Shown here piece after piece: positions 19,976-37,908 of a DNA stretch of 64,000 nucleotides; the stretch's first letter is position 1, and every line of letters starts with the position of its first letter. Source of the stretch: Dehalococcoidia bacterium. GTDB taxonomy: Bacteria > Chloroflexota > Dehalococcoidia > Lucifugimonadales > Australimonadaceae. Under the pieces are notes generated by a model, which saw nothing but the letters and a program-made list of their open reading frames with translations, did not search any database and was not told the origin of the DNA. The position numbers and the translations under genes are program-made. The DNA lies in contig OZ252088.1 in assembly GCA_965248065.1 (NCBI GenBank), positions 2,002,389 through 2,066,388 of the forward strand, in the 5' to 3' direction.

Positions 19976-21550
19976 CCAGTCTGGTGGGCCGGACTTGACG
20001 AAATCAAGAACCGAGGCCGATTCCGAGGTCACACCATCGTTCGGCATGGGGATGGTGTACGTCAGAACGGCCTCGTCTCCGTTGACCTTGATGCCCTCCA
20101 CGAAGTTGCGGATGAGCGCCTTGCACTCGGGGATAGTCCCTTCCTCCAGGAAGGCTCGGAAGTCCGCTACATACTCCTTGATCTCCTCCGTGGTCGGCAG
20201 CTCCACCCTGCGCTGTTCAAGCTGGCGCTCGGCATCATCTCGCGCAGCCTCCAGCTGCTCCTCGCGGTGCCTCAGAGACAGGATGCGGGGCGACAGGACC
20301 TCCAACGTCAGCTCGCTGGTCTCGATGGCCTCGTAGAGCTTCTCAAGCCGCTTCCGCACGTCTCCTAGCTCCGCCTCGATGACCTCCAGCCTGCCGGACA
20401 GCTCTCCGGCCATGGCGTCGATCTCCTCAGCCACCATCGTTACAAGCTCGACGATGGTCTCCTCAGTCAGGATCCGCTCTCTGATCTTCTCGACGACGAA
20501 CGCCTCCAGCCTGGGAGCGTTCAGGTAGCGGGCGCTGCACGTCCCTGCGCCCTCCGTGAACAGGGTGCCGCAGATGTAGTAGGCGAACTGGCCGCTCTTG
20601 GCTCCCTGGGCTCTGTAGGGCCTGCCGCACACACCGCACTTGAGCAAACCGCTCAGCAGGAACTTGCTTCCCACTCTAGCGGGCCTCTGCACCTTCGGCG
20701 CACGCTCCCGCATGGCTTCCTGAACGGCGTCGAACATCTCCCTCGACACCAGCGCGGGCCACGCCCCCTCAACCCTCACCGGGTCCTGGGCCTTCTCTCC
20801 CTTGCTGGTTTTGCCCCAGACGGCGGCGCCGGTGTAGGCTTCATTGGTGAGCAGGTAGTGGAGTCCGCCTTTGTTCCAGCGTTTGCCCCTGTTGGTGATG
20901 CCCCGGCCGTTCAGGGTCTTGCATATCTCCTTGAGGCCGTTGCCACTGAGCGAGCTCTCGAACATCTCCTTCACTACCGGAGCGGCGGCCGGGTCAACCT
21001 CCAACGTGGGACGCTCCTTCGCCCCGTCGCTGACCTTGACCCGCTTGTAGCCGAAGGGGGCAATGGAGGCAAGGAAGAAGCCCCGTGACGCGGCCTCCCG
21101 CATACCCCGGACAACCTCCTGCGCCAAATTCTCGCTGTAGAATTCGTCCACGCTCTCGATGATGGCCTCCATGAGCTTCCCGGTCGGGGAGTCGTCGGCG
21201 TGCTCGGTGATGGACACAACCCTGATGCCCTTGCGCCGTAGCATCGACTTGAAGGCGACTGCGTGCTCCCGCTTGCGGGTGAAGCGGCTGAACTTCCAGA
21301 CGAGGATGACCTCAAAGGGGGCCTTCGGCTGGCTGCCCTGCTCGATCATCTCCCTGAACTGGGGCCGGTCCGCCACGCGGCCGCTCTCGGCCTCGTCCAC
21401 GTACTCGCGGGCGACGGAGTAGCCGTTGGCCTTGGCGTAGTCCCTGAGCGCCCTCAGCTGGGCGGACACGGACAGGTCCACGTCCTGCCGCTCGCTGGAC
21501 ACCCTGGCGTACAGGGCCGCCGGGGTGAGCGGCTGTAGTTGCTTCTTCAT
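19934..21550 (-). CDS. Large serine recombinase (resolvase/invertase N-domain plus recombinase and zinc-ribbon domains, coiled-coil)
   Basis: The catalytic region AALYARVSSERQD, the zinc ribbon CGVCGRPYRA...YYICG and a long coiled-coil. The last ~15 codons lie beyond the predicted island boundary. Confidence 0.9.
   Translation of the reverse strand: MKKQLQPLTPAALYARVSSERQDVDLSVSAQLRALRDYAKANGYSVAREYVDEAESGRVADRPQFREMIEQGSQPKAPFEVILVWKFSRFTRKREHAVAFKSMLRRKGIRVVSITEHADDSPTGKLMEAIIESVDEFYSENLAQEVVRGMREAASRGFFLASIAPFGYKRVKVSDGAKERPTLEVDPAAAPVVKEMFESSLSGNGLKEICKTLNGRGITNRGKRWNKGGLHYLLTNEAYTGAAVWGKTSKGEKAQDPVRVEGAWPALVSREMFDAVQEAMRERAPKVQRPARVGSKFLLSGLLKCGVCGRPYRAQGAKSGQFAYYICGTLFTEGAGTCSARYLNAPRLEAFVVEKIRERILTEETIVELVTMVAEEIDAMAGELSGRLEVIEAELGDVRKRLEKLYEAIETSELTLEVLSPRILSLRHREEQLEAARDDAERQLEQRRVELPTTEEIKEYVADFRAFLEEGTIPECKALIRNFVEGIKVNGDEAVLTYTIPMPNDGVTSESASVLDFVKSGPPDWMGAQAAARGRQPL
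19978..19998. repeat. attL-like copy of the tRNA 3' end
   Basis: agtctggtgggccgg-acttga equals the tRNA-proximal sequence at 37883-37908 apart from a 5-bp gap (gcagg). Confidence 0.55.
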
Positions 21551-21580
21551 GGCGATTCCTCCTTGGTCTCTTGGTCTGGT

Positions 21581-22051
21581 CTATCGCGGCTGATTCGGGC
21601 CGCGCGTCTCTTCTCCAACGACCGCCACTGCCGGGTCTGCGGTATCTGCGGCGGTCACGTGCAACCGCTGTCCGATGGCTCCCAGGGCGGCGTCCATCTG
21701 GTCGATCCGTGACCGGTGCTGAACGTCCAGCACCCTGTCCACCTGCGGCATGTGCCATCCCAGGCGACGGGCCAGCTCAGCCTTGCCGACGCCCTGGTCT
21801 CTCATCCCCTGGTACAGCATCACCTTCACCGAAGTCAGCGTTGGCAGTGCGGCGTAGGTCTCGCCTCGTGATGGCGTGGGAATGTCCTTGCGGTCATGGA
21901 TACGGGCCGCTATCGCCTCTTCCAGCGCGTGGACGGCGCGGGCGATCGCCTCCTCCCGGTCGTCTCCGAAGGTGGTCAGCTCCGGGAAGTCGGGGGAGGT
22001 CACCAACACGGTCCCGTCATCATCTTCAAGCGTTATCGGATAGGCAAGCAT
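21581..22051 (-). CDS. hicB: HicB-family antitoxin with C-terminal HTH domain
   Basis: MLAYPITLEDDDGTVLVTSPDFPELTTFGDDREEAIARAVHALEEAI (HicB fold) followed by an HTH (GVGKAELARRLGWHMPQVDRVL). It abuts hicA. Confidence 0.8.
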   Translation of the reverse strand: MLAYPITLEDDDGTVLVTSPDFPELTTFGDDREEAIARAVHALEEAIAARIHDRKDIPTPSRGETYAALPTLTSVKVMLYQGMRDQGVGKAELARRLGWHMPQVDRVLDVQHRSRIDQMDAALGAIGQRLHVTAADTADPAVAVVGEETRGPNQPR

Positions 22052-22239
22052 CAGTCCAACCCCAAGTCTTTCTTGATCTTCTCTACGAGTCTGCGTCCAA
22101 GCTCCTTGCCGCCTCCGTGCATCGGAAGTTGGCTGGTGCGGTCTCCGAGCCGGATGGTGAGATGCCCGCTGCCTCCCTTGTGGGTGTGGAAGGTGCAGCC
22201 CTGCCTTCTCAGCCAGCGTCGAAGCTCTCGTGCGTTCAT
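22051..22239 (-). CDS. hicA: HicA-family toxin
   Basis: 62 aa with LRRQGCTFHTHKGGSGHLTI. Confidence 0.85.
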   Translation of the reverse strand: MNARELRRWLRRQGCTFHTHKGGSGHLTIRLGDRTSQLPMHGGGKELGRRLVEKIKKDLGLD

Positions 22240-22519
22240 CCCTTCATATCATGCACAACATTTGCGTTGTTGTCAACATCCGCGTTGTCCTTGCACAAAT
22301 CGACCCGGGCTTGCGCACAGGCCCCCCTCAGAAGGCGCGGGATTCGCGGTGTCGCTTGGGGTGCTCTACCCGTGTACAGGAGAATGCGGGGGGCGGCAAG
22401 TTGCAGGGCGGGCGATTCCATAGCTGAAATCGGGGTGAACGGCGCTGCCTGCTACATCGGAGCAAGCAATCCGATTCCGTAGCTCCTTCCACTCCTATAG
22501 GACAGCCTCAGCTACGAGA

Positions 22520-22570
22520 GTGGACAAAGTGCCGGTCGGCGAGTCGGGCGGAAGTGGACAAAATGCCGGT
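22520..22570. promoter_or_regulatory. Two 17-bp direct repeats GTGGACAAA(G/A)TGCCGGT, 34 bp apart (iteron/operator candidate)
   Basis: 22520-22536 and 22554-22570, in an apparently non-coding ~1 kb stretch of the island. Confidence 0.35.
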
Positions 22571-22633
22571 GGGGTTTGCGGGCGTGAATTGAGAGCATGG
22601 TCTGAAGGCTCGGCGCCGGTTCCCGTGAGCCGC

Positions 22634-22846
22634 TCAGTCTGCGTCCTCGCCCTCCGCCGGCGGCTCCGGCGCAGCCCCGGACCGGAGCGCCCGACGCCGC
22701 AGGTGAGCGCGGGCGATCATTCGGGCCAGGATGCGAAGCCCGCGCCGCACCGCCTCCTGCTGCTCGGCGGAGTGCGCCGTCGCCCGGCGATTGTTCGATG
22801 GTCTCCGCGCCAACTCTTTCCCTCTCTGCGGTTTGCCGCGACTCAT
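22634..22846 (-). CDS. Hypothetical small basic protein (70 aa)
   Basis: ORF from MSRGKPQRGKE... No recognisable domain and weak support. Confidence 0.3.
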   Translation of the reverse strand: MSRGKPQRGKELARRPSNNRRATAHSAEQQEAVRRGLRILARMIARAHLRRRALRSGAAPEPPAEGEDAD

Positions 22847-23316
22847 CGGATCGCGGCTCTCGCAAGAGAGTGTGCACAATCGCAACGCGGAATAAGACCT
22901 CCCATAGCTCTGCGCACGGATGCGGGGCGCTATAGGCTCTCTTTTTTTCGGCCCCTTCCGCGCAGTACTGGGGGTGTACAGGAGTTTGAGTTTGGTAACA
23001 GAATGGCGAGAGGCGTGAGTTCGTAGCTGAAACAGGGGTAAATCACCCCTCTACAGGACATAAAAGAGTGAACACTTTTAGAAAGGGTGCGTTCCGGACG
23101 GCATTGACATCGCCAAACGTGGGGAATGACATCCGCAGGCCCGTGGGAGCGGCGGCTCAATGACATTAGGCCCCGGAAAAGGCGATTGAAGTGGGGGTGC
23201 GTTACGTCCCGTTAAGACGGAGACGAAGACCGGGGTGACGTGCCTGCGGCACTGGCGATCACCCGGACGGGATACGCAGACCTAGCTATTTATGAGATAA
23301 TTGGCATTAAAGAGAG

Positions 23317-23817
23317 GTGCGTATGATGCTCGGCTTGCGGCGGGCCGGTCGCCGATGCGCAGGGTTCTTCCTTCTCGGCGTGCTGGCCGTTGTTTCGCTC
23401 TCGGCATGTGGTCCCACGCCCCAGGCCACACCGTTGCCCGACTTGGTAATAGAGATTGAGGCTCGGTTGAAATCGAATCCCGATATCGTGTATGGAGACG
23501 GTTGCATAGCCTCCAGCAGCGCGCGCTTGTCGCCTCACGTCGGAGAAGTAACCGCCCACGTCAGGAACGTTGGAGGTGGAGATGCGGGAAGTTTCACTGT
23601 TCAACTGAACAACTTCAACGCAGAAACGGTGGACGGCCTGAAAGCCGGGGCATCTACGACGGTCGTGCTCTCCGAGAGTGCTCGCAGTGAGAACGTCGCC
23701 GTCGTAGATGCCGGTTCCTCTATCGACGAGAGCGACGAGTCCAACAACACCGCCGAGGCGTTCATTCCAGTCCCTACCATCGCCCCGTTTCCAACCTGCA
23801 CACCTGAGTCCCGCTGA
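23317..23817 (+). CDS. Lipoprotein with CARDB-like domain
   Basis: Signal peptide plus lipobox (VSLSAC). PDLVI...VRNVGGGDAGSFTVQL...LKAGASTTVVL...IDESDESNN matches the CARDB pattern. Confidence 0.7.
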   Translation: MRMMLGLRRAGRRCAGFFLLGVLAVVSLSACGPTPQATPLPDLVIEIEARLKSNPDIVYGDGCIASSSARLSPHVGEVTAHVRNVGGGDAGSFTVQLNNFNAETVDGLKAGASTTVVLSESARSENVAVVDAGSSIDESDESNNTAEAFIPVPTIAPFPTCTPESR

Positions 23818-24101
23818 CGATGGCGTTCCGCAAGCCCCGGACAGACAGGGAGAGGTGGTGAGGGCCAAGGCTTCCCCTACAGCATGTGGGGGAGCGTGAA
23901 GTGGCGGGTGGCGTTGTCGGACCGCAGGGTGTTCCACGTCAACCATTCTTGTCTTGCCGGTCGCGCGACAATCATTTTTGCCGGGGTCGGTGCGGGCTGC
24001 TGCTGTGTGGCTAATCGAGTGCGACGGCTACCCCTCAGGGAGTAGTCACTTCTGGCATCCGAGCGAGCAATTCAGGGGCTGGAGATCATCAAGGCAGGCC
24101 C

Positions 24102-24566
24102 CTACCTCAGCACAAACCACCACAGGAGAACGCTGCCGATCAGCAGCGCCAACAGCACGAAGACGGTCGCGCGTACTGCGATGAACAGATCATTCGTCTC
24201 CTTGTGCGCGGCGACCTCCTTCTGGTACGCCCTCTCAAGCTCCTGATACGGCCGTCTGCCGGCGGATGCGGACTCCCTGGCCTCATCCCGCTCCCGCTCC
24301 AAGTCGGATGCTCTAAGCTTCAACTCCGACACGGTTTGCTCCAACTCCCGCACGGTCTGCTGAAGCTCGTCCTCCCTGGCGATGGCCCGGCGCAGCAGCT
24401 CCGCGTCGCTCAGATACTCCGGCCCCAGCATCCGTACGAACACCCGGCGGCCCTCCCGGACAACCTCGATCTCTCCCATCCTGATCTTCCGGTTCAGGGT
24501 CGAGAGGGATATCTCCATCTCCTCAGCCGCCTCCGCTTTCGTCACCCAGCGGACAGGCTCATCCAT
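24102..24566 (-). CDS. Excisionase/MerR-type HTH protein with coiled-coil and C-terminal transmembrane helix
   Basis: WVTKAEAAEEMEISLSTLNRKIRMGEIEVVREGRRVFV (excisionase-family HTH), a heptad-rich middle and the C-terminal FVLLALLIGSVLLWWFVL. Confidence 0.65.
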   Translation of the reverse strand: MDEPVRWVTKAEAAEEMEISLSTLNRKIRMGEIEVVREGRRVFVRMLGPEYLSDAELLRRAIAREDELQQTVRELEQTVSELKLRASDLERERDEARESASAGRRPYQELERAYQKEVAAHKETNDLFIAVRATVFVLLALLIGSVLLWWFVLR

Positions 24567-24670
24567 CGCTGTTCACCCTCCTATCGGCTGACACGTCAGC
24601 GGTTGTATCGGGGGTACAAAATGTACTCGGACGCGTTCTTTATTTTAGCACAGCTTCCCATTTTGCCCCC

Positions 24671-24692
24671 TGACATGTCAGGCGACATGTCA
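24671..24692. promoter_or_regulatory. Tandem palindromic boxes TGACATGTCA / GACATGTCA (operator candidate)
   Basis: Located about 105-125 nt upstream of the HTH gene start (24566). Confidence 0.35.
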
Positions 24693-26583
24693 ACCCCATT
24701 TCGTAGCTAAAACAGGGTGATTTCGGTGTCGGCAGACCTCGACAATCACCCTGCCGGACGCATTTTGCAACTCCCAGCCAGCATAGAGGGGAGATAGGGA
24801 CGCATCGTCCCTATCTCCCCCTACAGGACGGGGACGCATCCGGTGATAGAGCGAGTCCCACTGGTAGGCTCTCAGCTCGGACAGGGACCGTCGGGGGGAC
24901 TCCGGTTCCCACAGTGGACGCCAGGAACAGCCAAGTATCCCTGTGCTGGACAGAACGGGGATGCAGGACACGAGGATGGGCAGGGACATCCGGCTCATCC
25001 GGGCGGCGGTGCGCACGTAGGTGTCCTCGACGTCCTCCGTGTCCACGACGAATAGAGTAGTGGGGAACGGCGGCTGGTCGTCTTCATGCTCGGGCGACCA
25101 GTAGTAGCTCGTGTAGGGGCTCAGACGGGCGATGACTCCCCTGGGGTGACGGGCGCGAAGCTCGTACTCGAAGTAGAACGGCACGTGAAGGCCCCCGGCG
25201 ATCACCTTCCCCACGGCGGTCCGGTGCGATGGCGGAACCGCCCCAGTTGTAGGCCCGGTCGGACCTGGCGGTGGGGACGGACCACAAGAGCTCGCTGTCG
25301 GGGTCTGCCCTGGCCTCGGCCTCCAGCTTCGAGAGGAACCACGTGATGCCGTCGGCGTGCTTCGTCTGCCGAGCCCACGTCTCGATGCGGTGGCCCACGT
25401 GCCGTCTGCGGCCCTGTGTGTCGGTGGTGAGGGCCGTGCTCCAGATGCCCCGTGTGGTGGGCAGCTGGGCGCGGTCCCTGTGGGTGACGTAGCGAATGCC
25501 CTCGGCGGACAGCGCGTAGCGGGTGTCTCCGCGTTGTCCTCGACGCTCGACAAGGCCCCAGGTGTTCACGAGGCTGTGCATCATCTGGCTTACGCGCCCC
25601 TCGGAGACGCCGAGCCAATTGGCCAGGTGCTCGCGGGGGATCATCGGGTGGTCGGTCACTAGGTCGAGCGTCCGCTTCTCGGAGGGGCTGAGGCCGAAGG
25701 CCGGCGCAGCCCGCGCCATCCGCTCGGGACGGGGCAGCGACGCCCGCTTCCGCTCCGGCGACTGAGTGCGAGGCCCTCCGCCGGGGCTGGCGCCGGAGAT
25801 CACGCCCTTCAGCGAGAAGAACCTGCTGCCTATCACCCACGAGGTGCAACACCAGAGGCGAAGGTCCCGTCTTTCGAGGGCGTCCCTGGACTCCACGCCG
25901 ACGTAGCAGTCGCGGATGTTCCGCTCCTCGCAGAACCTCGTCGTCAGTCTCTCCTCCCAGACGCTGGGCACCAGGATCAGAACGGTGTCGGGGCGGCGCG
26001 TATAGTCGTACTCCGCTATGGCTCTCAGCCTGTCGTAGAGCGACCGGCACCGCAGGGCGAGCCCCTGGCGCACGATGCCGAAGCTGCGGCCGTCGTGGAG
26101 GGTGATGGTGGCGTCGAAGCGTCCTCGTCGGTGGAACTCCACGTGGGACCGAAGCCCGTCGATGCCGGGTGACAGTGAGGCTGCGAGGCGGTAGACGGCG
26201 GCAACCGCGTCCATCCTGCGGATGAGCAGCATCAGCCATTCCCTGGACAAGGGGTAGGCCCGCACGAAGTCCGAGGGCGTCGCAAAGCCGGGCACCTGGG
26301 CGGCTTCGCCGATGCCCTTTGCCGTCAGGTAGTATCTCTGGCTCGAAGGCAGGTGGGCGGTCCCGTGACTTACCCTCCCGACGATGCCGTCAGCTAGCAG
26401 GCCGGTCAGGGCGCGGTGGACCGTCGCGTGGGCCTCGCCTAGGATGCGTGCCAACTCCGCCGAATCGACGAACGGCGTCCGGCTGAGGGAGTCGAGCAAC
26501 TGTCGTTCGGAGAGGGGCATATCCGGGTCCCCGTTTCGCGCTGTGCCGTATTCGGGCAATTGCTCTAGATTGCAGTTGTCCAA
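24690..26583 (-). pseudogene. Replication-relaxation (Replic_Relax)-like protein with tandem winged-helix domains, frameshifted near 25200
   Basis: Two wHTH-like segments (LSRTPFVDSAELARILGEAHATVHRALTGL and MIPREHLANWLGVSEGRVSQMMHSL). The expected C-terminal core ...PDxxG...FYFEYELRARHP continues in a +1 frame (ORF 24690..25553). An alternative start is at 26520. Confidence 0.55.
24788..24820. other. Perfect 15-bp-stem hairpin GGGGAGATAGGGACG-CAT-CGTCCCTATCTCCCC
   Basis: The arms are exact reverse complements. It lies in the 3' tail of the replication-relaxation-like gene. Its role (terminator, oriT-like site or recombination site) is unknown. Confidence 0.6.
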
Positions 26584-26771
26584 CTATCAATTGTCGCGGG
26601 GGAAAGCGTCGTATGTAATGCCTTGCAAGCCATTGTGTCGAATCCAATCTTGTGGTAGGGCGAAGGGGCCAGCAGGCTCGGCTGTGGCTAGTCAACGGGA
26701 GCGTGGCTTGGGCAGCGCGATGCAGAGCCCGGGGTGAAGCTCCGGGGCAGACTGGAGGGGGAATACCCGCA

Positions 26772-29700
26772 TCAACTCCAGATATAGTCGAAGCAGACTA
26801 GGTGCAGGTCTTCCCGTGTGAGGGGTGTGTGGGCGTCTGATCCGGATGACCCGGCGTCGGCCTCCACAGCATCCATTGAAAGCACATATCCAATGACTGG
26901 CACGATGTCCTGGTCCCGCTGGAACTGCTCGTAAACCCGTCGCAGGTCTCGGATGGCCGTGTGAGTCATTGGAAACCGTAGTCTCTGCATCGCCTCCCTG
27001 ACCTCGGCTCGCAGGACTGCCGGGCTGTTCAGGTACCCCCGCAGCAACGTTATGACTGTTTGTTGCAGTGGGTCTAGGATTCGTGGGGCTGCCTCCACCG
27101 CCTGCTGCTCACGGACAGAGCCGAGTATGTCGTCAATCACCCTGTCCTGGATGGCAAAAACATCGCAGTCGCCTACCACTCGCGGCGTGTCCGGCGAGCA
27201 GGCGATGAGATTGGCGATAAGGAACCTGTTGTCGAGCACGCGGCCTCTGTCGATATCGTAGTAGCGCCAGAAGTGCCGTCGGTCCTCGCCTCTCGGTCCG
27301 GGCGCGGTGAAGTAGAAGAACATCCCCTTCTCCCCGTCGCGCGCCAAGCCGGAGTGGATGCCGTCCGGCAGCTCTTCAAGCATCTCACGCGCCCCGGTGT
27401 CCAGTAGACCCCGCAGCTGCTGGAGCAAGAACTCGTTGCTAGCCAGTTCAGTGAACTGCTCCTGCTCCTCTATCACCGCGCCATCCTCGTTCATAATGCG
27501 GCGCAGGGTGTTGAAGTTCCTGGGGTGAACCGTCTCACCCAGGACCGACGCATCGAGGAACCCGGTGCGGTCGATGTCGGTGATCTTGCGGTTCAGACTC
27601 TCCACCAGGCCGAGGAGCTTCTCCAAGCCTGCCTCCGGGAACATGTTGTTCACCCACAATAGCGGGTGCCTTGACCCGATGCGGTCGATACGCCCCGCCC
27701 TCTGAACCATGCGGGTGGGGTTCCAGTGCAGGTCGTAGTTGACCAAGACGCCGCAGTCCTGGAGGTTTTGGCCTTCGGACAGGACGTCCGTTGAGATGAG
27801 GATGTCCACCTCTGCGTCGAAGCCAACCAGGTCTGGCCGTTTGTTGGATTGGGGGGCAAAGGCCTGTATGAGCCGGGACCGCTCCGCTGGCGAAGCGCCG
27901 CCGTCCATGCGGCGAATCGACGGCTCCCCCGCGTCCTTGCGGAAGTCTTCGCCGCTGTCGCCGCCCAGCTCTCGGTAGAGGTAGCGAGCCGTGTCCCGGT
28001 AGTAGGTGAACACGATGACCTTTCGGCCCTTCAGGTCCTCCGACAGCAACTGTTTGAGAGTATGAAGCTTGGCGTCCTGGTCCGAGGTGATGCCGCCGAC
28101 CAACCGCCACAGTTGGGTCAGGGAGTCCACGTCATGCTGGAGCGCGTCGTGCAGCCTTCTCAGGTCATACTGGCTGGTATCCAACGGCTCAAGGCTTTCC
28201 AGCACATCGCGGGCCTCGTCGCTGGCGTCCATCTCGTCAGCCCGGCTGACCGGAGCGCCGTCGTCGTCCTCGTCCTCGCGGGCGAGGTACCGCATGGCCT
28301 TCTGGAAGGAGGAGCTGTCAAGGAGCTTGCCGTCCAGCACGTAGCTCTCGAAGGTCTTGGTGAACTCCAAGGCGCGCCGCACGCTGATGCGGAAGGCGTC
28401 CACGCTGGACTCGAAGCGCTTCAGGTAGCGGCTCCTGAAGATGCCGGCTAGCGCTTCCTCCCGGCCCTGCTCGAACTCGTCCCGCTTGACGCCGGCCTTC
28501 TTGTACGTCTCAAGTTGGTAGGGCGCAAGGTAGAGGCCTTCAACGGCCTCCACAACCTTGTCGTAGATTCCGGAATAGGTGGATTCCAAGTCGTACCGCA
28601 CCGTCTTGAGCCGGCGCTCCGGCCAGCTGATGCGCTCACCCCGGATCATGGCCTCCGGGTATGTCTTGCGCACGAAGGCGCGGGTGCGGCGGATGACCAC
28701 CTCCTCCAGCAGGTTGAAGAGCGCGACGCCGGTCTCGTGGTCGGCAACGTTGCGGCGGGCGTTCAGGAAGAAGCGGTACAGGTCGCCGATGCCGGCACCG
28801 GAGAAGTAGCTGCGGTCGCCCCCGGTTATCAGCGTCAACTGGTTGTACAGGTCGAAGATGGTGTTGTTGATGGGTGTCGCCGTTAGCAGGATGAGCTTCT
28901 TACGGCCGCCGTCCCGCCCCCTGCCTCCGTTGGCGCTGATGATGCGCTCCAGGTTCTCGTAACGTTGGGTTGTGCGGTTACGGAAGTTGTGGGACTCGTC
29001 GATAAGGATGACGTCGGCGTCGCCGATTGAAGACTGTTCATAACCCGCCTGGCCCAACTCCTCCTGGGAGACGATGGCTCCGGCGATAGTGGCGTCTCGA
29101 AGTTCGTCGGTCCACATCTGGCGAAGGGATGCCGGGCAGATGACCAGCGCCTTCTGCCGCAAGTGATAGGCATAGTCCTCCAGCAGCTTCTTCCCGATCC
29201 AGGTCTTGCCCAGGCCCACCGAGTCCCCAATCAGAACGCCGTCGTAACGGGCAAGGACCCGGCGTGCCTTCTTTACCGCGTCTTCCTGGAACTCCGACAG
29301 CTCCACAGCCGACTTGCCGTGCTCGGTCTCGGGAGACCCGAGGTCATCCTTGAAGTACTCGAAGAGGGCCTTCATGTACACCTGGTAGGGGGTGTACTCC
29401 ACCTGGCCGAACTTGGAGGCATCCAGAAGCTCGATGAGTTGGTCCTTGAAGTCGCTCGACTCCTCCCAGCGTTCCCGAAACCAGCGGTCGAGCTCGGTGA
29501 TGGCCTGGGGCCTACGCCACTCATCAACTCGCGGCGAAGCTCCATCTCCTCTCGCCCATCTACAGGAGCCGGGCTTATCCTCAACATCTCCTCTTCGGTG
29601 AGGGTCGTCTTGTGGGAGAGGTTGAGCTCCCTGTTGGTGGTGAGTCCGGCACCGGTGAAGTTGCTGGAGCCGACGATGGCTGCCACTGACTGGAATCGGT

Positions 29701-30103
29701 CCGCGCCGCCCATCGGAAGGTCGCCGTAGAAGATGTAGCTCTTGGCATGGAGGAACCCCTGTTGGTAGGCCCGGACGCCCACCATGTCGCGGCGCAGGAA
29801 GGCGATCAGGTCCTCTACTGCCCGGAGGGTCGCCTCGTTGAAGGGAGCGGCGTTCAGTTCCTGAACCAGACGTGAGGCGGCCCGAGGCCGCAGCCCGATG
29901 CTCTCGCCGTCCCGCGGCTCGTCCCCCAGTAGCAGGCGGAAGCTTCCCAGCCCTTGCAGACCCTCTTGCAGCAGGACGAATCCACGCACGTTAAAGTAAG
30001 CGGTGGCGATGTCCAGCGACTTGCCACCGTGCCCCGCCAGAATCTCGCCGAGCACTTCCGCCATGCGGTGGTTCTGGTTGTCTATGACGTAGGGGATGTA
30101 CAT
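26772..30103 (-). pseudogene. PLD-family nuclease fused to an SNF2/DEAD-like helicase (~1100 aa), split by a 1-nt frame change near 29510
   Basis: PLD motifs are FLHAKSYIF...VGSSNFTGAGL (29372..30103). SNF2 motifs are DSVGLGKT, LIDESHNFRN, LTATPINN, SEGQNLQD and QRAGRIDRIGS (26772..29402). My translation shows the helicase frame stays open upstream (ITELDRWFRERWEESSDFKDQLIELLDASKFGQVEYTPYQ) and overlaps the PLD frame. Confidence 0.8.
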
Positions 30104-30108
30104 GGCGC

Positions 30109-30351
30109 TCAGGCAGGTATGTACACCGGACGGGCATGGGTGATGTCCTTGCTGGTTACGGCCCGCGCCTGCGACGGCGATACTGTGGCGATGGCAGCCG
30201 TGTCGCCGTCGCAGGTCAGGAACTCCACCACGTAGGCCTCTCCATCCGGGTGCATATGCACGACAATGCCGACGTCACCAGGCCTCAGCTCTTCACTTTC
30301 GTCCCCGGTAAGGTCGGTGGTTAGTACGACCTGCTCATGCTCTCTGAACAT
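30109..30351 (-). CDS. DUF4926-like small protein
   Basis: MFREHEQVVLTTDL...LRPGDVGIVVHMHPDGEAYVVEFLTCDGDTAAIATVSPSQARAV. RBS GAGAGGTGA lies upstream of ATG 30351. Confidence 0.65.
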   Translation of the reverse strand: MFREHEQVVLTTDLTGDESEELRPGDVGIVVHMHPDGEAYVVEFLTCDGDTAAIATVSPSQARAVTSKDITHARPVYIPA

Positions 30352-30364
30352 CTCTTCACCTCTC

Positions 30365-30646
30365 TCATGGTGCATACTGAATGCCCCAACCCTCCATCTC
30401 ATTCCGAATGCTCTCTACGTCAGCTTTGCTAACTCCATATAGGCGAAAAGTAAGTTGGTTTGCAAACTCGGTAATATGATGACGCTTCTCTATTAACCGC
30501 CCAATGTTATGCTCAGATACTCCTTCACTGATCTTGCTTGAAAGATTCTCGATTTCAGCAGCACAGAGGTCTAGGCCTAGTAAGAGGGCCGCCGCCCGCT
30601 CCCCTTCTTCCATTGAATTAAGACTTTCCAACAGGTCGCTAAACAT
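30365..30646 (-). CDS. Hypothetical helical protein (93 aa), low GC
   Basis: 8-nt overlap with the HNH gene and a 13-nt gap to DUF4926. No motif recognised. Confidence 0.5.
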   Translation of the reverse strand: MFSDLLESLNSMEEGERAAALLLGLDLCAAEIENLSSKISEGVSEHNIGRLIEKRHHITEFANQLTFRLYGVSKADVESIRNEMEGWGIQYAP

Positions 30647-31097
30647 CGATCTGACTCCAAAGGTCGCTCACATTTCGTTTTATAGTTAGATTCAATCCAT
30701 TGACCGCTATCTGTGTTTCCTCTGAGTTATTGAAAATCACCCGCATCGAAGGAGCTCTGTGAAGGAGGACATGATGGCTAGCACAGAGCAAGCAGAGATT
30801 GGTGGGACTATCGGAACCGCCGCTTGAGACAAACTCAATATGGTGAACATCCAGTATTCTATCTGCTAGAGCCTCAGGTAGCTCATTGTGAGACAAACAC
30901 CCAACTACTTGGCACTTGCTCTCCCAAGCTCTAAGTACAAGCTGTCTGAGTGCAGGGTCCCGTTCCCACGAGGTGTAACCTCGCCTCCGCCGGGCGACAT
31001 CTTTGACCTTTGCAAGCCGTATAGCTTCCCTTCGAACTTTCTTCCCTTCTGTAGTTTCTAAATAACCACCACTCCGCGTACGCAAGCGAACTTGCAT
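30639..31097 (-). CDS. HNH endonuclease
   Basis: CQVVGC...LDVHHIEFVSSGGSDSPTNLCLLCASHHVLLH (HNH/His-Me finger). Confidence 0.75.
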   Translation of the reverse strand: MQVRLRTRSGGYLETTEGKKVRREAIRLAKVKDVARRRRGYTSWERDPALRQLVLRAWESKCQVVGCLSHNELPEALADRILDVHHIEFVSSGGSDSPTNLCLLCASHHVLLHRAPSMRVIFNNSEETQIAVNGLNLTIKRNVSDLWSQIDV

Positions 31098-31371
31098 CCC
31101 CAGGACCGACTTGTTCGACAGTGACTAGCATCGGCGCGTTCCAGTGGATCCACGTCTTAATCCATCTGACGAGCTCTCTCCCACCGATATAAGGATTCGC
31201 TGGATGCCTACGAAAACGTCCTGTAACAGTTTTCCCGTCCAATAGTGTCACCGCGCAGTCGCTATCGACGGTTGGCAAGTAGTCCAACTGAGCAGGCCTG
31301 AATCGAACCATCGTTCCGGTATGGTGAACGAGAGCCCCTTCCAGTTCTTGAACGCCGATTAAGAAACTCAT
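30931..31371 (-). CDS. Hypothetical protein overlapping the HNH gene (possibly its frameshifted N-terminal domain)
   Basis: ATG at 31369-31371 overlaps the MTase stop (ATGA). The first ~92 aa look protein-like (TLLDGKTVTGRFRRHPANPYIGGRELVRWIK). The last ~55 codons overlap the HNH ORF in another frame. Confidence 0.4.
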   Translation of the reverse strand: MSFLIGVQELEGALVHHTGTMVRFRPAQLDYLPTVDSDCAVTLLDGKTVTGRFRRHPANPYIGGRELVRWIKTWIHWNAPMLVTVEQVGPGDASSLAYAEWWLFRNYRREESSKGSYTACKGQRCRPAEARLHLVGTGPCTQTACT

Positions 31372-34300
31372 GTTTCCTTCTCTCCCTGCAAACTCCAGGT
31401 CAACCGTCTTACCCATTCCCTAACTCTTACTGTTTCTGCCAGTTTACGGTCAGGCGGTCTTGGAAGTCGGCGCAGATGACTTATCTTCACTTGTGGGAAA
31501 CTCCGCTGCTGTGCATCGCGATTCGCCCTGATGTGTAGCCAGGCAAGTAGGTCAGAATTTAGCAAGGCTACTAGAGTACCGTCCGGAAGCCCGGTTACTC
31601 CATAGCACGCAAGAACACTATTCCTAAAGTAAGTAGGGTCTCGGTGCAATGCAGCTATCGGACGAGATGCGGTTTGTCTCAGTACAATAGGACACTGTTT
31701 ATACCGCTCTCGAGGTCCAATTCGAAAGTATGTCCCATCTTTCTGGGTAGTATCCAAGCGGAGGAATATCCGTGGCGCACGAACGTAATAAGGGGTTATG
31801 TCACGACCTTCTCGTATAGGTACATTCGCAGGCATTACCAGTATGAACACCAGAGTCGCCAAACACTTCTTTATCAAATGAGGGCAGATCCTGCAGATAC
31901 TCAAACAGATCGAGCAGTTCGGGGTTAGTGGTCGTATCGATTGAAGCGTCACCTTTTGCATTGATGGTCCATGGGTCTTGATGTGGCAAATCATTGAATA
32001 GAGTAGGCTTGCGCTCAAAAATGACAGTAATAGAGGGTTCGGTCACACCCTCAAAGGCGTTCTCGCCGTGGTATGGGCACGGTTCTTGCGTCACTCCTAT
32101 GCCAGCAATGTACTCGCGGACACTTGCATATCCTTCAAGATCCGCAACCTGTGCGGGTATAATCAGCCCAAGAAAACCGGTTTCTTGGAGAAGAGAAGCA
32201 TTTCTTTCAAGGAATAGCCCGTGTGTCGAAAGCCAGCCGCCATTTCCAGAGGAATAAGTGTTCTTGAAGTATCTTACAGTCCTTTCCGCTACAGAAACAC
32301 GCTGGCGCCCTGAATAGGAAAGCCAAGGCGGATTGCCCACCACGGCGTCAAAGCCCTGATCGTCCTTGCGCTTCCATGTCCCACGTCCAAGGTCAACGAA
32401 CGCCTCCGGGAACTCCAGGTCCCAGTGGAAGAAACGATTCCCTGCACCTGTCTTCCTTCCCTTGGTAATGGCCTCCTGGTAGTCAGGTGACAACCCTGTT
32501 CCGCCGGAGCGTATCTGCTCGATAAGGTTGGGCCCGGCCAGCGTCAAATACTCCCTCGCCTTCGCGTTCCCGAAGTGCCGGCTCACCCAGATGTCCAAGG
32601 CGGCCTTATAGGGGGCCTGCGCTCGCTCGAAGTCGGCGTAGAGGCTGTGGCTGCGCTCGGCCTGCTCCACCGTGGCGTCAGGAATGCGGCGCAACTGCTC
32701 GATTGATGCCGTGGCTGAGAGCAGGCCCTGGAAGGGGCCGCCGAACAGGGTGGCAGTGTGCCCCTTGGTCTGCTTGGCAAGCTCAGCTTCTATCTCCTGC
32801 ACCGTCGTCCCGATGAGGGAGTTGCCGCACTTGAGGTGGTGGTCCAGGAACGAGAGCGGCGCCCCGATGGTGAAGCAGTCCAGCCACAGAGACACCTTGG
32901 ACAACTCCACTGCCATGGGGTTCAGGTCGACGCCGTAGGCGCACCGCTTGAGCACATGGCGCTTCAGCAGGTTGATGTCGGTAAGGCGGCCGGTGTCTAC
33001 GGCGACTCCCTGCCTCTCCATTTCGGCGATGATGGCCTCGCGGGTGTCTTGCAGGAACTTGGTAACTGGATTCCAGGGGAAGGCTCGCAGGAAACCCTCG
33101 CGCTCCCCCAGGATGCGGTCGCAGATGAAGTCCACTGCCTCTACGAGGAAGTGGCCGGAGCCCATAGCCGGGTCGAGCACCTTCAGGTCGAACAACTCGT
33201 CAACCAGGCTGGCGTAGGTGTTAGCCACCTTGGCCGGGTCGTCGGCCTTCATTCCCTGCCTTCTGAACCCCTCAGCCCTGTCCAAAGCTTTCCTGTAGTC
33301 CTGCTGAGCATCCCGGAACTTGGAGCGCAGCTTGTCGAACTTCTCCGCTAGAACCGGGCCTACCGTATTCTTGACGATGTACTTCACGATGTGGTCGGGC
33401 GTGTAGTAGGAGCCGGAGGCCTTCCGCTCCTGCCGGTCATTCTCCAGGTATACGTCGCCTGGTTGGTACACTCGCTCTTGGGCGTTGCGGCCTCGTCCCA
33501 AGGTCAGCACCCTCTTCTTGGACTTGACTGCCTCCTGATAGGGAATTACCTCCTCGGTCTTCTTCCCCTTGACCACCGCCATCTTTTCCTGGGCGATGCG
33601 CACCTTGAACTCCAGTAGCCCCTCGTAGATGGAACCCAACTGCCGGACGCCCAGGGACTTGTAGTCGATGAACACCAAGTCCTGACGCTTGTCGTCTAGG
33701 TCCCGGGCCAGCAAGTCCAGCCCCAGCGCCAGATATCGGTCGGTTATCTTGTGCGAGGCTAGGAACCGGGCGGTCTCAGCCTCCTGGGTGTAGTCGGCTG
33801 AATCGGGATTCGTGATGAACAGCCCCCCATTGTAGAGGGGTACGTTCAGGTCACGGTTGCCACGGTCGATAACGGAGAACAGGTCCAGAAGGCGATCGTA
33901 CAGCTCAGTGGCGTCCGCCGAAGCTCGGTACGCCTTGCGCAACTGGTCCGGTACAGCATCTCCTATAGGACCGGCCTTGTCTGCTATGTCCGCCTTCAGC
34001 TTGGTGAGGCTCCGCTCCCAGTAGCCGCGAACCTCCTTCACCGGCAGCAGGTCGCGGGACTCTGCGTACAGGAGGAAGAGCAGCCGGTAGAGCAGAGTCA
34101 GCGTGCCGTTGAAGACTTGGCGGCGGAACGCTTCGTCTGGCTCGCGCTTCAGAGAAAGCTGCTCCGAAATGGGCAACAGTGAAGCCTGGTGGGAACCTGC
34201 CAGTCCAATTTGCCCCTTGAGATGCTCGATGAATCCGGTGGCGAAGTGGGGAAACACCTGCTCGAACACCCGCTCCTTCAGACGTTCGCCAAGGCCCTTG

Positions 34301-35496
34301 GCGTAGCTTTCACTCTCGTCCAGCAGCCTATCCAGGAAGCTCAACTCCCCGGCCTGACCATCCCGCTGGAATTTCCTCGTGACGAAGGCGTTCAGGCGGA
34401 AGAAGAGCCAGAAATACCGGAACGACTCGTTGGGATCGGCCATAGCCAGCGTTTCATCCAGGTCGATCTCGTAGTAGTTGGTGGACCGGGAATGCGTTCT
34501 CGCCGAATAGAGACGCCACAGCTTGCCATTGGTAACGATGGCCCACGGTGCTTCATCGGATTCGAGGACGGAGACTACGCGAGCGCCGGGGTTCTCGTCG
34601 GGCACCTGGGCGTCGCGGGCCTCGTCTCTGCCGTCGAGGTACCGATTCCAAGCGTAGGCCAAACAAACGGCGACAGGCTTCTCAGGGTTGTGAGGGGCAT
34701 AAAGACGGTAGTCGGGTTCGTCTCTACCGGCAGCCTTCACGGGCTTGAACCCCAACGTGTCCAGAGCCGACTCCACGGGGAGTTGGGCAACTCCGCCGTC
34801 GTCATCCGTGTTGGCCTGCTGCCGCAACTGGGGGAGCAATTCTCGCAGGCGGTGGTACGCGTCCTCCGGCCGCTCCCTCCACTCAGGGAGCTCGGGTAGC
34901 CGCTCGTTCAGGTAGTAATCGGAGAACAGAGCACGGTTGTTAAAGAACGGTTCCGACCACTCGGCCACTGCGTACGCGGAGAGGAGCTTGTCGTACTGGG
35001 CATCGGCATCCGGCTCGGTATAGGTGAATCGGCGCAGAACCCGAAGCTGGACCTGAGAGGGATTGTGGCGGTTGACCGTGAGGATGCGGGGCCGCACCGA
35101 CACTTGACGGGCCGCCATGGGCGATGCTGGCGTCCCGGGCAGAGAGCGCTGCAACAGCACAAAGTCCAGGCGTTCGTAATCGTCGGTCAGGACCAGCAGA
35201 TAGTTTCCGGCGCGGTTCCTCAGCGCACGAGCCAGTCCCTGCGTCGCCGCAATGGTCACGGACGTGAGCTCAATCAGGTACGAGTCCATCGGCTCTGCGC
35301 CGTCGTCATGTACGGCGATGCGTTCGATATGCTTGATCTGGCGCGAGAGCGACCCGGCGGTGATCCCCATCGCCGACACGCTCTGAGGCTGGCGGCTGTC
35401 CGTGCGGTAGCCAAGGGCAGCGAAGAAGGCGGCCACGCCGTCTCGCGTCGCCAGGGTCTGGACGTCGGCTACGGATATGTTCCTGTCGTCAGTCAT
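31368..35496 (-). pseudogene. Large N6-adenine DNA methyltransferase (Eco57I/PglX/type IIG-like, ~1370 aa) with TaqI-like C-terminal specificity domain in a +1 frame
   Basis: The AdoMet motif is LDPAMGSGHFLV and catalytic motif IV is VVGNPPWL. ORF 31801..35496 ends just after GVHTGNA. The expected continuation (IREGRDITPYYV...KIFLR.. / LLALLNSDLLAWL...FPQVKISHLRRLPRP) is ORF 31368..32018. The frame switch is near 31835. Confidence 0.85.
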
Positions 35497-35502
35497 GGGT
35501 GC

Positions 35503-36114
35503 TCACGCTGTCCGGCTCATGCCATCGGCGACCATCGCGCTTACAGGTTGCGCCATCCACGCGGGCATAACCGCCCGTGACGCGGCCAACTCTCGCATGT
35601 CTTCGGCAGAGAGCCTGCATTCAAGTGCTCGCAGGTTGTCCTCCACCGCTCCGGGACCCAGCCAGGCCAGTGCGCGAACTGCCTCGCCCGCCGGTCGGTG
35701 CGGCGCCGTCAATTGCCAACGAGGGGCATGTCGTAGTTCGACCGTCAACCCGCCGAGTTTCAGCTTGCGGTTGGGCCCAGAGGTCAAATAAACGGACCGT
35801 ATCGGCACCTGCGTCGTGAGTCCGAGAGCGTTTGCCGCCATGTCGCCACAGGGTACAATTGTATCGCCCCAAAGCGCGGACAGCGACGCAAATACCTTCT
35901 CAACGGCGGGCGGTCGAGAACCGAAGCGGGACTGGATGGGCCGGACGTAGACGCCTTGGCAGACCCGCACAAGCTCTCCCTTGCGGGCAAGCCGGGACAG
36001 CGCCTGGTCGACAGCAGCTCTGCTGCCCATGTGCAACAAAGCGCTTGGGCACACCAACGCACCCTCCGACGACTCGGCGGCGTGGCTCATGATCTGAGAT
36101 GGAAGGCTTGGCAC
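35503..36114 (-). CDS. DUF6088/AbiEi-antitoxin-like winged-helix protein (candidate regulator)
   Basis: GSRAAVDQALSRLARKGELVRVCQGVYVRP...GDMAANALGLTTQVPIRSVYLTSG. It ends 7 nt before the MTase start. An alternative start is at 36090. Confidence 0.7.
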   Translation of the reverse strand: MPSLPSQIMSHAAESSEGALVCPSALLHMGSRAAVDQALSRLARKGELVRVCQGVYVRPIQSRFGSRPPAVEKVFASLSALWGDTIVPCGDMAANALGLTTQVPIRSVYLTSGPNRKLKLGGLTVELRHAPRWQLTAPHRPAGEAVRALAWLGPGAVEDNLRALECRLSAEDMRELAASRAVMPAWMAQPVSAMVADGMSRTA

Positions 36115-36306
36115 CGAGAAAACCTCTGTAATAGAATGTCAGAACTATAGCGCAACGACTGACTGGACGCAAGCTACCTATGGCTCTGAACACATTGCTT
36201 CGCAAACGCTTTGACCACAAACTCGTAGCAGTATAGGCTGCCGCCGCTGGCGTTGCAGGAACTAGAACTATGGGAATCACACTGACAGGATGAAGGGACG
36301 CAGCTA

Positions 36307-37620
36307 TTGAAACTGAATAGTAGATCCAGCTTATCCAGCTTCCTAAGATGCTTGGCCGAATCCGCTCCCGAAATGCTAAAGAAGGGAGAACCGGAGTTTG
36401 ATTCCACGCTAATCTCCTTCTGGTTTGGTAAAGAGTTGGCTGCTAGGTTCTGGTCAGCTCTGAATGAAATAAGGTTAGAACTGGTTCCTCGACACGCAAG
36501 AGACATGGATATTCTCAATGCATTTTGGGACGACTTGGCCTGCCAAGTGGCTGCCAGCCCTCAGGTCTATCTTGAACGGAAGGAAGCGTTGGGCGACCTC
36601 ATCGACCAGTTCGGTGACCGCTGGAAGAAACCCCTCTCTACGTTCGAAGTGATATATTCGGTCGAATATCTGGCAGTAGGGCAAGACCCAATTACACTTC
36701 TCGGGGTGGATTTCTTTGCTCCCACTGATGAGGCCCTAGAGGAAAGATCTATACCTAAGGCTGAGGTCGCAAGATGGAGTAAGCATGAACGAATCGTTAC
36801 TCTGGCGACAGCCAGAGTGGAGGCTGCTGGGATTGATATCGCTTTTGAAGCAGGAAGAGATCAAGTAGTTGATGCAATCATCTTGATGCAAGCGTCAGCT
36901 CTACGTGGACTGGCTGGAAGAACCCTTACGGACGAATTACTCCAATGGAAGCTGTCTGGATGGTACCTTTCGAGGCCGGTTACCGTCGGAGAGCCATCCG
37001 ATACGTGGCTCTGGGGATTCCATCGACAGTTTGGCCCAGTGGTTGATGATTTAGGCAACTACATACGACAGGGCATTGAGGGGCTTAAGCTGCAACTGCT
37101 CAGTGACCTTCCAGAGGATATCCGTGAGCGAATTCTTCGGTCAATGTATTGGATCGCACACAGTGCTGTACACGAGGCAGACGACCATAAGTTCGTGGAC
37201 CTATGCACTACACTGGAAATCCTACTTCTTCCTGAGGGCCAGAGTGTAACGAGAAAGGGTGCCGTTATCGCCCTGCGATACAACCTGCTGGGAGGGGATC
37301 TGAATCCTCCAGCGGTGAAGCGGATGTACGATCGCCGAAACGACGTGATCCATGGCAATCGATTACCTGTGGTCGGGCCGCAGGACACTTGGCATCTCAG
37401 GTTGGTTTGCTATGCGGCTGTTCGCCTGATTATTGATGCCTCAGCCAAGCAGACAGACAAATTGACACTCCAAGACTTGATTGGCACGCTGGAGACAGAG
37501 GAGAGCCTCACCGTTTTTGTTGATCGGGCAGAGAAGGGCATATACGAGGGTTCTTCGTTGCTGCAGATTCTAAAGGAAGCACGGAACAGGCTAAAGCAGC
37601 TAAGGCGAGTCGGCAAGTAG
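36307..37620 (+). CDS. HEPN-domain protein (Rx4H motif), predicted RNase/abortive-infection-type effector
   Basis: The C-terminal region is ILRSMYWIAHSAVHE...LEILLLPEG...AVKRMYDRRNDVIHGN (RNxxxH). Lower GC than its surroundings. Start uncertain (TTG 36307, ATG 36373 or 36505). Confidence 0.55.
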   Translation: MKLNSRSSLSSFLRCLAESAPEMLKKGEPEFDSTLISFWFGKELAARFWSALNEIRLELVPRHARDMDILNAFWDDLACQVAASPQVYLERKEALGDLIDQFGDRWKKPLSTFEVIYSVEYLAVGQDPITLLGVDFFAPTDEALEERSIPKAEVARWSKHERIVTLATARVEAAGIDIAFEAGRDQVVDAIILMQASALRGLAGRTLTDELLQWKLSGWYLSRPVTVGEPSDTWLWGFHRQFGPVVDDLGNYIRQGIEGLKLQLLSDLPEDIRERILRSMYWIAHSAVHEADDHKFVDLCTTLEILLLPEGQSVTRKGAVIALRYNLLGGDLNPPAVKRMYDRRNDVIHGNRLPVVGPQDTWHLRLVCYAAVRLIIDASAKQTDKLTLQDLIGTLETEESLTVFVDRAEKGIYEGSSLLQILKEARNRLKQLRRVGK

Positions 37621-37882
37621 CGGGCAGTGGTTGGGAACGCATTACTCCTCGGGCCATGAGTTTCCCCCGCAGGCTGGGCCGGCATGGGGATGAGCCCGCG
37701 TACATCTTCAACGAGCCTCGCGTCGGCTACGGCATGGCGAAAGGCAAGGCACCGAGAGAGGCAGAGCATCGAGAGTAGCGGCCACCGTCACCGCTCACGG
37801 CGGCCTCTACTCGACAGGGTAGAACAAAGGCTCGACTACACCACCAGCCTGAACCTCAACGTGAAAGTTCTTGATTTTATCA

Positions 37883-37908
37883 AGTCTGGTGGGCCGGGCA
37901 GGACTTGA
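37883..37908. repeat. attR-like core overlapping the tRNA 3' end
   Basis: agtctggtgggccgggcaggacttga, the direct-repeat partner of 19978-19998. Confidence 0.55.

Follow-up and report, generated by a model that had tools for sequence, protein, structure and literature searches.

Which reaction placed a large island against the 3' end of a tRNA-Met gene in a Dehalococcoidia genome, and which enzyme carried it out? The island was found in a stretch of 64,000 nucleotides of contig OZ252088.1 from a Dehalococcoidia bacterium, hereafter the window, and the gene of a large serine recombinase (LSR) lies at its left end. We consider it highly probable that the island, 17,905 bp in length, is a mobile element whose own LSR inserted it into the 3' end of the tRNA-Met gene in a conservative, site-specific reaction. 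Sequence comparison demonstrates the insertion itself, through both junctions, the empty sites, a contiguous attP in other loci and the location of the exchange; the LSR is its probable catalyst.

The ends of the element and its attachment sites

A direct repeat of 15 bp, AGTCTGGTGGGCCGG, is present in exactly two copies in the window, at 19978-19992 and 37883-37897, where 0.01 copies are expected and none of 100 shuffles contained two or more. Just inside each copy lies the arm GTTCTTGATTTYRTCAAGT in opposite orientation, at 19993-20011 on the minus strand and 37867-37885 on the plus strand, with 0.00 expected. The inverted arms are 19 nt long and can be extended to 23 nt with 87% complementarity. 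A first-pass annotation of the window had placed the repeats and arms at these positions, and both are far above chance. The right-hand copy of the repeat is composed of the last 11 nt of the tRNA-Met gene (CCGGCCCACCA) and 4 nt past the tRNA. The same annotation had extended the repeat by ACTTGA, which is true of the left copy, where this hexamer adjoins the repeat; in the right copy it is found 5 nt further in (37903-37908), as part of the tRNA T-loop. The offset is best read as the difference between attP-type and attB-type half-site spacing, outside the direct repeat.

The target is an intact tRNA-Met(CAT) gene with encoded CCA on the minus strand (37887..37963, predicted by ARAGORN), in which the bases past the crossover (ACCA) are supplied by the island. 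Its sequence is identical to the tRNA at the unoccupied sites of two relatives, L084 and L088, and in L082, the closest relative. The locus thus bears the signature of a tRNA-gene island, with an intact tRNA at one end, a displaced 3' copy holding only 11 nt of tRNA at the other, and the integrase inside. The length of 17,905 bp is counted between the crossover dinucleotides, GG on the plus strand at 19986-19987 and 37891-37892, which corresponds to CC at tRNA positions 71-72. Both junctions are assigned to the minus strand. The tRNA-proximal junction, attL (37866..37912), consists of the B half-site formed by the tRNA T-loop and acceptor arm (37893-37912), the GG/CC, and the P' half-site (37866-37890, AGTTCTTGATTTTATCAAGTCTGGT on the plus strand). 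The integrase-proximal junction, attR (19966..20012), consists of the P half-site (19988-20012), which lies in the LSR coding sequence and encodes SVLDFVKSG, the GG/CC, and a half-site from the flank (19966-19985). Relatives of the element were collected by a scan of one genome per species, which yielded at least 563, and the best 80 loci were examined. At least 12 loci have a P' arm of the attL type, with its TTTCAC..TTGAG flank, at the far end of a related element.

The LSR gene (19934..21550, minus strand) encodes 538 aa, and its domains agree with the recombinase that the first-pass annotation had recognized at the left end. The Resolvase domain (PF00239, 2.7e-33) covers residues 11-157 and contains the motif YARVSSERQ, with the catalytic RVSS and its nucleophile serine. 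It is followed by the Recombinase domain (PF07508, 3.1e-24; residues 187-283), the zinc ribbon Zn_ribbon_recom (PF13408, 4.5e-15; residues 298-357), and an E/L/R-rich, heptad-like region at residues ~370-470, a candidate for the coiled-coil motif that LSRs carry in the zinc-ribbon domain. The protein matches the integrases of phrog_95 (1e-115), and comparison with structures gave distant sequence matches to TP901-1 and SPbeta YokA.

The attP site sits within the 3' end of this open reading frame (ORF), and integration exchanges the C-terminal tail of the integrase. This embedded site is absent from the remarks of the first-pass annotation. Read on the minus strand, the C-terminus is ...SESASVLDFVKSGPP|DWMGAQAAARGRQPL*, in which VLDFVKS is the translation of the inverted arm and GPP that of the core CCGGCCCACC, and the last 14 codons, past ...SGPP, are read from flanking DNA. 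The best 120 homologues listed are 86-94% identical to the window protein, apart from one 835-aa hybrid match at 81%; in nearly all of them the conservation extends to SVLDFV(K/Q)SGPP and gives way to unrelated tails, with size ranging from 0 to more than 100 aa. Homologues with tails of 0-1 residue suggest that the tail is probably dispensable. The tail predicted from the window for the circular form is GPPDLIKSRTFTLRFRLVV*, and tails close to it, GPPD(L/W)(I/T)KSRTF..., were found in P0053 (GPPDLIKSRTFSLNLKLLL), P0014 and P0021 (GPPDWTKSRTFTIRFRLAL), and P0061. Moreover, third-codon positions are more conserved in the last 13 LSR codons (0.91) than over the preceding 37 codons (0.75), which argues for a constraint at the DNA level besides coding.

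Joining the two inner ends of the island had been predicted to give an attP composed of inverted repeat, core and inverted repeat, and this arrangement does occur as contiguous DNA in two related loci. In L001, the locus of P0053, positions 11543-11592 read GGTTCTTGATTTCGTCCAGTCCGGCCCACCAGACTTGATAAAATCAAGAACC, with one mismatch to the junction rebuilt from both ends of the window. The same arrangement is present in L086, the locus of P0014, at ~3027-3078, where the attP runs on into TTTCACG.TT.AGGTTCAGG (TTTCACGATTAGGTTCAGG), the island-internal sequence found beside the tRNA in the window. The LSR gene of L001 is followed by a second island-like gene set, which indicates that this copy is part of a tandem array. 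The attP of 52 bp has the form GGTTCTTGATTTCGTCAAGTCCGGC-CC-ACCAGACTTGATAAAATCAAGAAC(C/T), two 25-bp inverted half-sites about a central CC, and contains 21-nt arms around CGGCC|CACCA. As RNA, the reconstructed site forms a strong hairpin (-27.5 kcal/mol, z = -6.6).

The exchange window was narrowed from 79 and about 15 junctions. At the 79 integrase ends, nucleotides are conserved at 90% or more as far as the final base of GGCCCACC and at 30-70% directly beyond it, and the few core variants are limited to positions 6-8 (ACT, AGC, GCT, ATC). The partner sequence at the far end varies only at core positions 1-3 (GGC, GCT, CGC, GCC, AGC), with CCACC and the P' arm constant. Variation confined in this way places the exchange at CC, core positions 4-5, which is also the centre of the 52-bp dyad. 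The model of a serine-recombinase attP offered by the first-pass annotation holds in its main elements, with the 2-bp CC in place of the 15-bp repeat as the site of exchange. The repeat itself combines mimicry of the tRNA end (ACCA) with a match in the flank (GACT) that is due to chance or is a relic. A short attP of ~50 bp, an attB of ~40 bp, imperfect dyads and a central dinucleotide are all present, as in LSR sites.

The attB half-site is the T-loop and acceptor arm of the tRNA. Read outward from CC, both attP half-sites have the sequence xCCxGACTTGAxxAAATCAAGAAC(C/T) (positions 1-25), and the half-site of the tRNA, over positions 1-19, is GCCGGGCAGGACTTGAACC. The end of the GAACC motif falls at position 19-20 in attB and, 6 bp further out, at 25-26 in attP. 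In the half-site model developed for LI integrase, the zinc-ribbon domain of an LSR lies ~5 bp nearer the centre in attB than in attP. By analogy, GAACC is probably the contact of the zinc-ribbon domain, and because the spacing fits, the conserved T-loop sequence GGTTCRAnTCC would be the outer recognition motif. In 15-17 other family members GGAnTYGAAC was found at exactly positions 9-18 of the half-site that lies past the integrase end. ARAGORN found almost no tRNA genes in the 80 related loci, although tRNA neighbours had been expected for most members, and manual inspection of the flanks resembling an inverted T-arm in these loci revealed no tRNA fold. At two places, L006 ~400-455 and L012 ~12770-12830 (minus strand), P' arms abut tRNA-like 3' ends (TTCGAATCCCCTCAGCTCCACCA and GGTTCGAGTCCAGTAACGCCCACCA) without an ARAGORN call; these may be displaced tRNA fragments that served as targets.

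The following course of integration is proposed. The circular form would carry the ~52-bp attP, whose left half-site and core coincide with the final ~10 codons of the integrase gene, and attB would consist of the T-loop and acceptor arm, the CC at tRNA 71-72, and whatever sequence lies past the tRNA. Both sites would be cut and rejoined at CC. The tRNA would stay intact because the element supplies ACCA, and the integrase, now at the far end, would acquire a different C-terminal tail read from flanking DNA. Excision would need a directionality factor, possibly the conserved 154-aa HTH_17 protein, and the conserved Replic_Relax protein might serve replication or mobilisation of the circle. The circular junction of the excised form would read ...GTCAAGTCCGGCCCACCAGACTTGATAAAATCAAGAAC..., and the scar left by excision ...CCTGCCCGGCCCACCAGACTGGATGGG....

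Empty sites, the composite flank and other explanations

Orthologous loci with the order fumarase-Clp_N-tRNA-Met were fetched through homologues of the Clp_N protein adjoining the island; an exact-protein look-up of the window Clp_N matched no record. Related genomes with an empty site beside the tRNA, for which the first-pass annotation had advised looking, were found in at least five lineages. They include L083, L084/85 and L088/89 (70-74% protein identity) and the marine relatives L090-95 (60%). At these sites tRNA-Met is followed by unrelated sequence with neither P' arm nor LSR.

The closest relative, L082, with ~93% nucleotide identity, has a degenerate P'-type arm (ATCCTGACAAGATCAAGAACCTTCGTGCTGCGGTT) at 11063-11097, directly after the same tRNA-Met. 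The arm is followed by 1.8 kb, after which synteny resumes with the window from 12073 downward, and no integrase was found within 10 kb. This arm is what remains of a different element that had occupied the same attB earlier. As synteny with L082 is restored only from 12073, window positions 12074-37886 (~25.8 kb) are non-native. The island is the latest arrival in a composite array of ~25.8 kb and did not insert alone to be rearranged afterwards. The earlier view that the left flank is foreign and made of transposase and permease fragments is retained, and the array takes the place of a single insertion with later rearrangement.

Several parts of this flank can be named. A weak IS481-type fragment (19759-19977, E=0.0067) lies next to the C-terminal part of an OppC/NikC-type permease (19190-19744); no intact copy of the IS481-like fragment was found by tblastn against the related loci. 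A degenerate second tRNA-Met(CAT)-like copy without encoded CCA lies at 16506-16580 on the minus strand. It is 89% identical to the target tRNA over 84 nt, including 9 nt of 5' flank, with mismatches in the acceptor and D-stem, and the sequence behind it, GTCAGGGATTCGTCC, is similar to the inverted T-loop-like half-sites of relatives. This copy may be a pseudo-tRNA that was displaced or imported, or else a pseudo-attB that is unoccupied. On the plus strand, 15373-15648 encodes the last ~83 codons of an LSR paralogue, 63% identical to a convergent paralogue in L009, and ends in its own att site at 15567-15618, GGTTCGCAGTTCGGTACGTCAT-GGTGGGCC-AGACTGGACGGTAGGCAGCACC. This is the remnant of a second element with opposite core polarity. 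We further found that on the integrase side the 11 nt adjoining the crossover (ACCAGACTGGA) are identical to the beginning of P' arms, for instance in L086, and the neighbour of the island may once have been another family element.

Two candidate features of the flank were rejected. The OCD gene left of the island was considered as native synteny, given the order Clp_N-tRNA-Met-DLH-OCD in marine relatives, and is only 31% identical and not orthologous. The 28-nt repeats at 17770-17921, three copies with a 61-nt period, were considered as a type I-E mini-CRISPR, and turned out to be copies of a dispersed hairpin resembling repetitive extragenic palindromes (REP). This REP-like hairpin, TTCCCGC-N4-GCGGGAATGA, has 12 matches in the window against 0.06 expected, for example at 2664, 5818, 9609, 10883, 10945, 40627 and 46938.

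Could another process have produced these ends? Islands placed by tyrosine integrases are classically recognized by a flanking direct repeat of the tRNA 3' end (PMC4383910), and such an enzyme, or another system, might have used the 15-bp repeat as its core with the LSR as a passenger. We regard this as very improbable. No ORF with a Phage_integrase domain was found among the scanned ORFs of 12-38 kb, the LSR is the only recombinase of the island, the similarity break follows the 3' end of the LSR gene in 79 loci regardless of cargo, and the geometry is that of an LSR (~50-bp dyad attP, ~40-bp attB and a 2-bp exchange window). Slightly less credible still is the idea that the arms are a hairpin, either a terminator or an mRNA element, which ends the LSR gene, so that the copy on the tRNA side would be unrelated and the island ends coincidental. 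The strong RNA fold of the reconstructed site speaks for it, and so does the finding that arm and core sequences are common in these genomes; however, the arms are common because they end elements of one family. Moreover, the half-arms are 17.9 kb apart in the window and adjacent in L001 and L086, and the intervening sequence is absent at the orthologous site of at least five relatives.

A fossil island, integrated by an LSR in the past and now immobile, deserves more weight, and we still find it rather unlikely. The outer flank is non-native and has been rearranged, the integrase tail is foreign, the Replic_Relax gene is split at ~25.2 kb, and TaqI_C is separate from the methyltransferase ORF. 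The remnant att site and LSR fragment nearby show that decay occurs at this locus. Nevertheless, the LSR ORF is full length with its catalytic RVSS, the core and the arms on both sides of it, P and P', show no damage and agree with the family consensus, the foreign tail is probably no handicap, as shown by the short-tailed homologues, and the frameshift coincides with a G5 run and is possibly an assembly error. Some observations do weigh against the element as proposed here. No excised or circular molecule was found, either in L086, an 8.6 kb linear contig without a detected terminal overlap, or in two scans of JGI metagenomes, which gave 0 matches to the contiguous attP and 0 to the empty or occupied outer junction (GYCCGGCCCACCAGACTGGATGGG). 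The half-site past the integrase end is non-native, and the original attB of this copy is not reconstructable. The native B' half-sites at the empty sites have no common motif, which is unusual for an LSR attB. Finally, Replic_Relax is frameshifted, and the methyltransferase probably too, so this copy may be decaying or may contain assembly indel errors. Integration into tRNA-Met by the island's own LSR nevertheless remains the explanation we favour.

Gene content, family and arrays

The element is integrative and possibly mobilisable. Three genes recur in the 81 loci compared: the LSR in all of them, Replic_Relax/wHTH in 63, and the HTH_17 excisionase-like gene in 43. In the window, the HTH_17/excisionase-family DNA-binding protein of 154 aa (24102..24566, minus strand) matches TIGR01764 'excise' (1.5e-4, below the cut-off) and phrog_66 (1.6e-4), and is a candidate directionality factor or regulator. 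The Replic_Relax/MarR-wHTH gene (24786..26682, minus strand; PF13814 and PF12802) is a single ORF of 565-632 aa in relatives and occupies two frames in the window, with a frameshift at ~25.2 kb (25190-25220) beside the G5 run.

The cargo is made up of anti-phage and toxin-antitoxin (TA) genes that differ between elements. Pfam and PADLOC matches and the GC profile bear out the TA, defence and lower-GC genes listed in the first-pass annotation; GC falls to 0.50-0.56 at 30-32 kb and 36-38 kb, compared with 0.66-0.70 in the flank. A HicB-like antitoxin (21581..22051, minus strand; PF15919, 3.2e-07) is a variable accessory gene found in 5 of the 81 loci. All cargo at 26.7-37.8 kb is unique to the window among the related loci, of which the complete relatives measure 8.3-11 kb. 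Also on the minus strand, 26772..30103 encodes a SNF2-family helicase (DrmD-like, 'HKD+Snf2') and a PLD-family nuclease (Pfam; PADLOC PDLC01075, 1e-54; DrmD, 2.4e-39), for which no counterpart was found in the 80 related loci. It is followed by small cargo genes (30109..31097, minus strand) for DUF4926, a 93-aa protein and an HNH endonuclease, assigned by Pfam with a weak PADLOC match to type IV restriction endonucleases. A large Eco57I/MmeI-type N6-adenine methyltransferase, DrmMI-like or type IIG, is encoded at 31368..35496 on the minus strand (Pfam; PADLOC DrmMI, 5e-90; REase_MTase_IIG, 1e-55). Its TaqI_C specificity domain is a separate ORF overlapping the end of the 1231-aa methyltransferase ORF (31800-32020). 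The breaks in Replic_Relax and TaqI_C are either real decay or assembly indel errors. The remaining genes are an AbiEi-type antitoxin/DUF6088 (35503..36114, minus strand; PADLOC AbiEi, 3.8e-61, and Pfam) and two low-GC ORFs beside the P' end at 36307..37769, of 437 aa (plus strand) and 119 aa (minus strand), which match nothing in Pfam, NCBIfam, PHROGs or PADLOC.

Two classifications of this gene set were rejected. A DISARM system, defined by drmA (helicase), drmB (DUF1998) and drmC (PLD) in combination, does not fit, as only the DrmD-like SNF2 protein, the DrmMI-like methyltransferase and the PLD protein are present, DUF1998/DrmB is absent, and the best helicase match is 'HKD+Snf2'. Nor does a prophage or phage satellite: PHROGs matches are limited to the integrase, a Xis-like protein and a weak nicking-Rep, with no virion genes, and IMG/VR contains only a 29% relative.

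The family is large and apparently undescribed. Among the best 80 loci, 79 come from Dehalococcoidia, Chloroflexota or SAR202 metagenome-assembled genomes, and the one exception is a short contig in a Gemmatimonadaceae bin; sponge samples are indicated by the names of several records. Among the top matches, a single chromosome carries as many as five copies, some of them only 19-100 kb apart (OZ247426.1: L054, L070 and L056). Literature searches, with incomplete coverage that leaves room for an earlier description, gave nothing relevant on the family, on LSR elements of sponge Chloroflexi or on serine integrase genes that contain attP.

In 39 of the 79 integrase-end junctions, the element abuts a convergent LSR paralogue of full length with 52-60% identity, the 3' end of which forms the flank. 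The two genes overlap by ~35 bp and read one core in opposite senses (GGTGGGCC, ...V.FGGP), as in L009 (11530-13146), L080 (11534-13129), L017 and L022. The reciprocal joint, in which the non-coding arm-core-P' of the paralogue is found at the far end, is present in L007, L008, L009, L014, L015, L053 and L054. In L054 (11571-11653) and L053 (11568-11650), two family elements are separated by a spacer of 82 nt, composed of an inverted T-loop-like sequence and a paralogue-type arm, and at 1.56-1.67 Mb of OZ247426.1 a third LSR locus lies 74 kb beyond a closely spaced pair. The short spacers and the third locus together indicate long arrays of such elements.

The convergent joints are the products expected of recombination between attP and an attP-type site, or between attP and attL/attR. 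To our knowledge, canonical LSRs recombine neither attP-type pairs nor attP with attL/attR. The arrays could alternatively have formed by homologous recombination between highly similar integrase genes. We tentatively suggest, with considerable reserve, that several families of LSR paralogues are an interacting system and not independent islands. They would share the core GGC-CC-ACC, a mimic of the tRNA acceptor end, keep attP in their own 3' coding end, and recombine with tRNA sites and with each other's attP, attL and attR. If true, this would generate long shuffled arrays of defence cargo with convergent integrase genes overlapping at the junctions, an integron-like assembly platform for defence islands.

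Relation to known systems

Classically, tRNA genes are targeted by tyrosine integrases. Target genes of the t(m)RNA type were reported for 14 of 297 elements with serine integrases (S-Int), against 44.5% of those with tyrosine integrases (Y-Int), in the TIGER survey, whose authors described such use by S-Int as previously unreported and in need of experimental proof (PMC7192596). The island adds a comparison-supported case of an LSR using a tRNA gene to that earlier handful of computational calls (PMC7192596). It also suggests how an LSR can use a tRNA, since the universally conserved T-loop sits where the outer, zinc-ribbon motif of attB is expected, and the element brings the 3' ACCA. Genome engineering could use LSR sites of this sort as landing pads, as they are short, independent of other factors and matched to a conserved tRNA end. 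In addition, the abundance of the family among species representatives and its variable defence cargo bear on the acquisition of immunity genes in uncultured Dehalococcoidia.

The Resolvase, Recombinase and zinc-ribbon architecture is shared with the integrases of phiC31, Bxb1, A118/LI, SPbeta (SprA) and TP901-1. Like these phage-type LSRs, the island has a ~50-bp dyad attP, a ~40-bp attB, a 2-bp window, and an outer motif placed further out in attP, by 6 bp here and by 5 bp in the LI model. Unlike them, it targets a tRNA gene, has its attP inside the integrase ORF, shares 11-15 bp between attP and attB instead of ~2 bp, and has an unconserved outer attB half-site; moreover, the elements are not phages. 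Sites of the embedded kind are known from tyrosine recombinases: Mx8 intP and SSV1 int carry attP in the integrase gene, and their C-termini differ between the excised and integrated states. Integration alters or splits the 3' part of the integrase gene in these cases as in ours, but the island enzyme is of the serine type, only its last ~14 residues change, and any tail length is tolerated in the family.

LSR elements that stack or use repeated targets are known as well, in the composite arrays of SCCmec/Ccr and in phiRv1 at REP13E12. Related loci of the present family likewise show tandem and head-to-head stacking at one shared core, but here the neighbours are different LSR paralogues, with genes that converge and overlap at the crossover core, and the targets are tRNA-like T-loop and acceptor sequences. 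With the tyrosine-type tRNA islands of the Islander kind, the window shares the intact tRNA, the displaced 3' copy, the integrase at one end and the restoration of the tRNA by the element (PMC4383910), and differs in that its integrase is a serine recombinase. The island is therefore an LSR integrative element of a known kind, which is unusual for its tRNA target, its attP in the integrase ORF and its array-building family, a combination that is rare.

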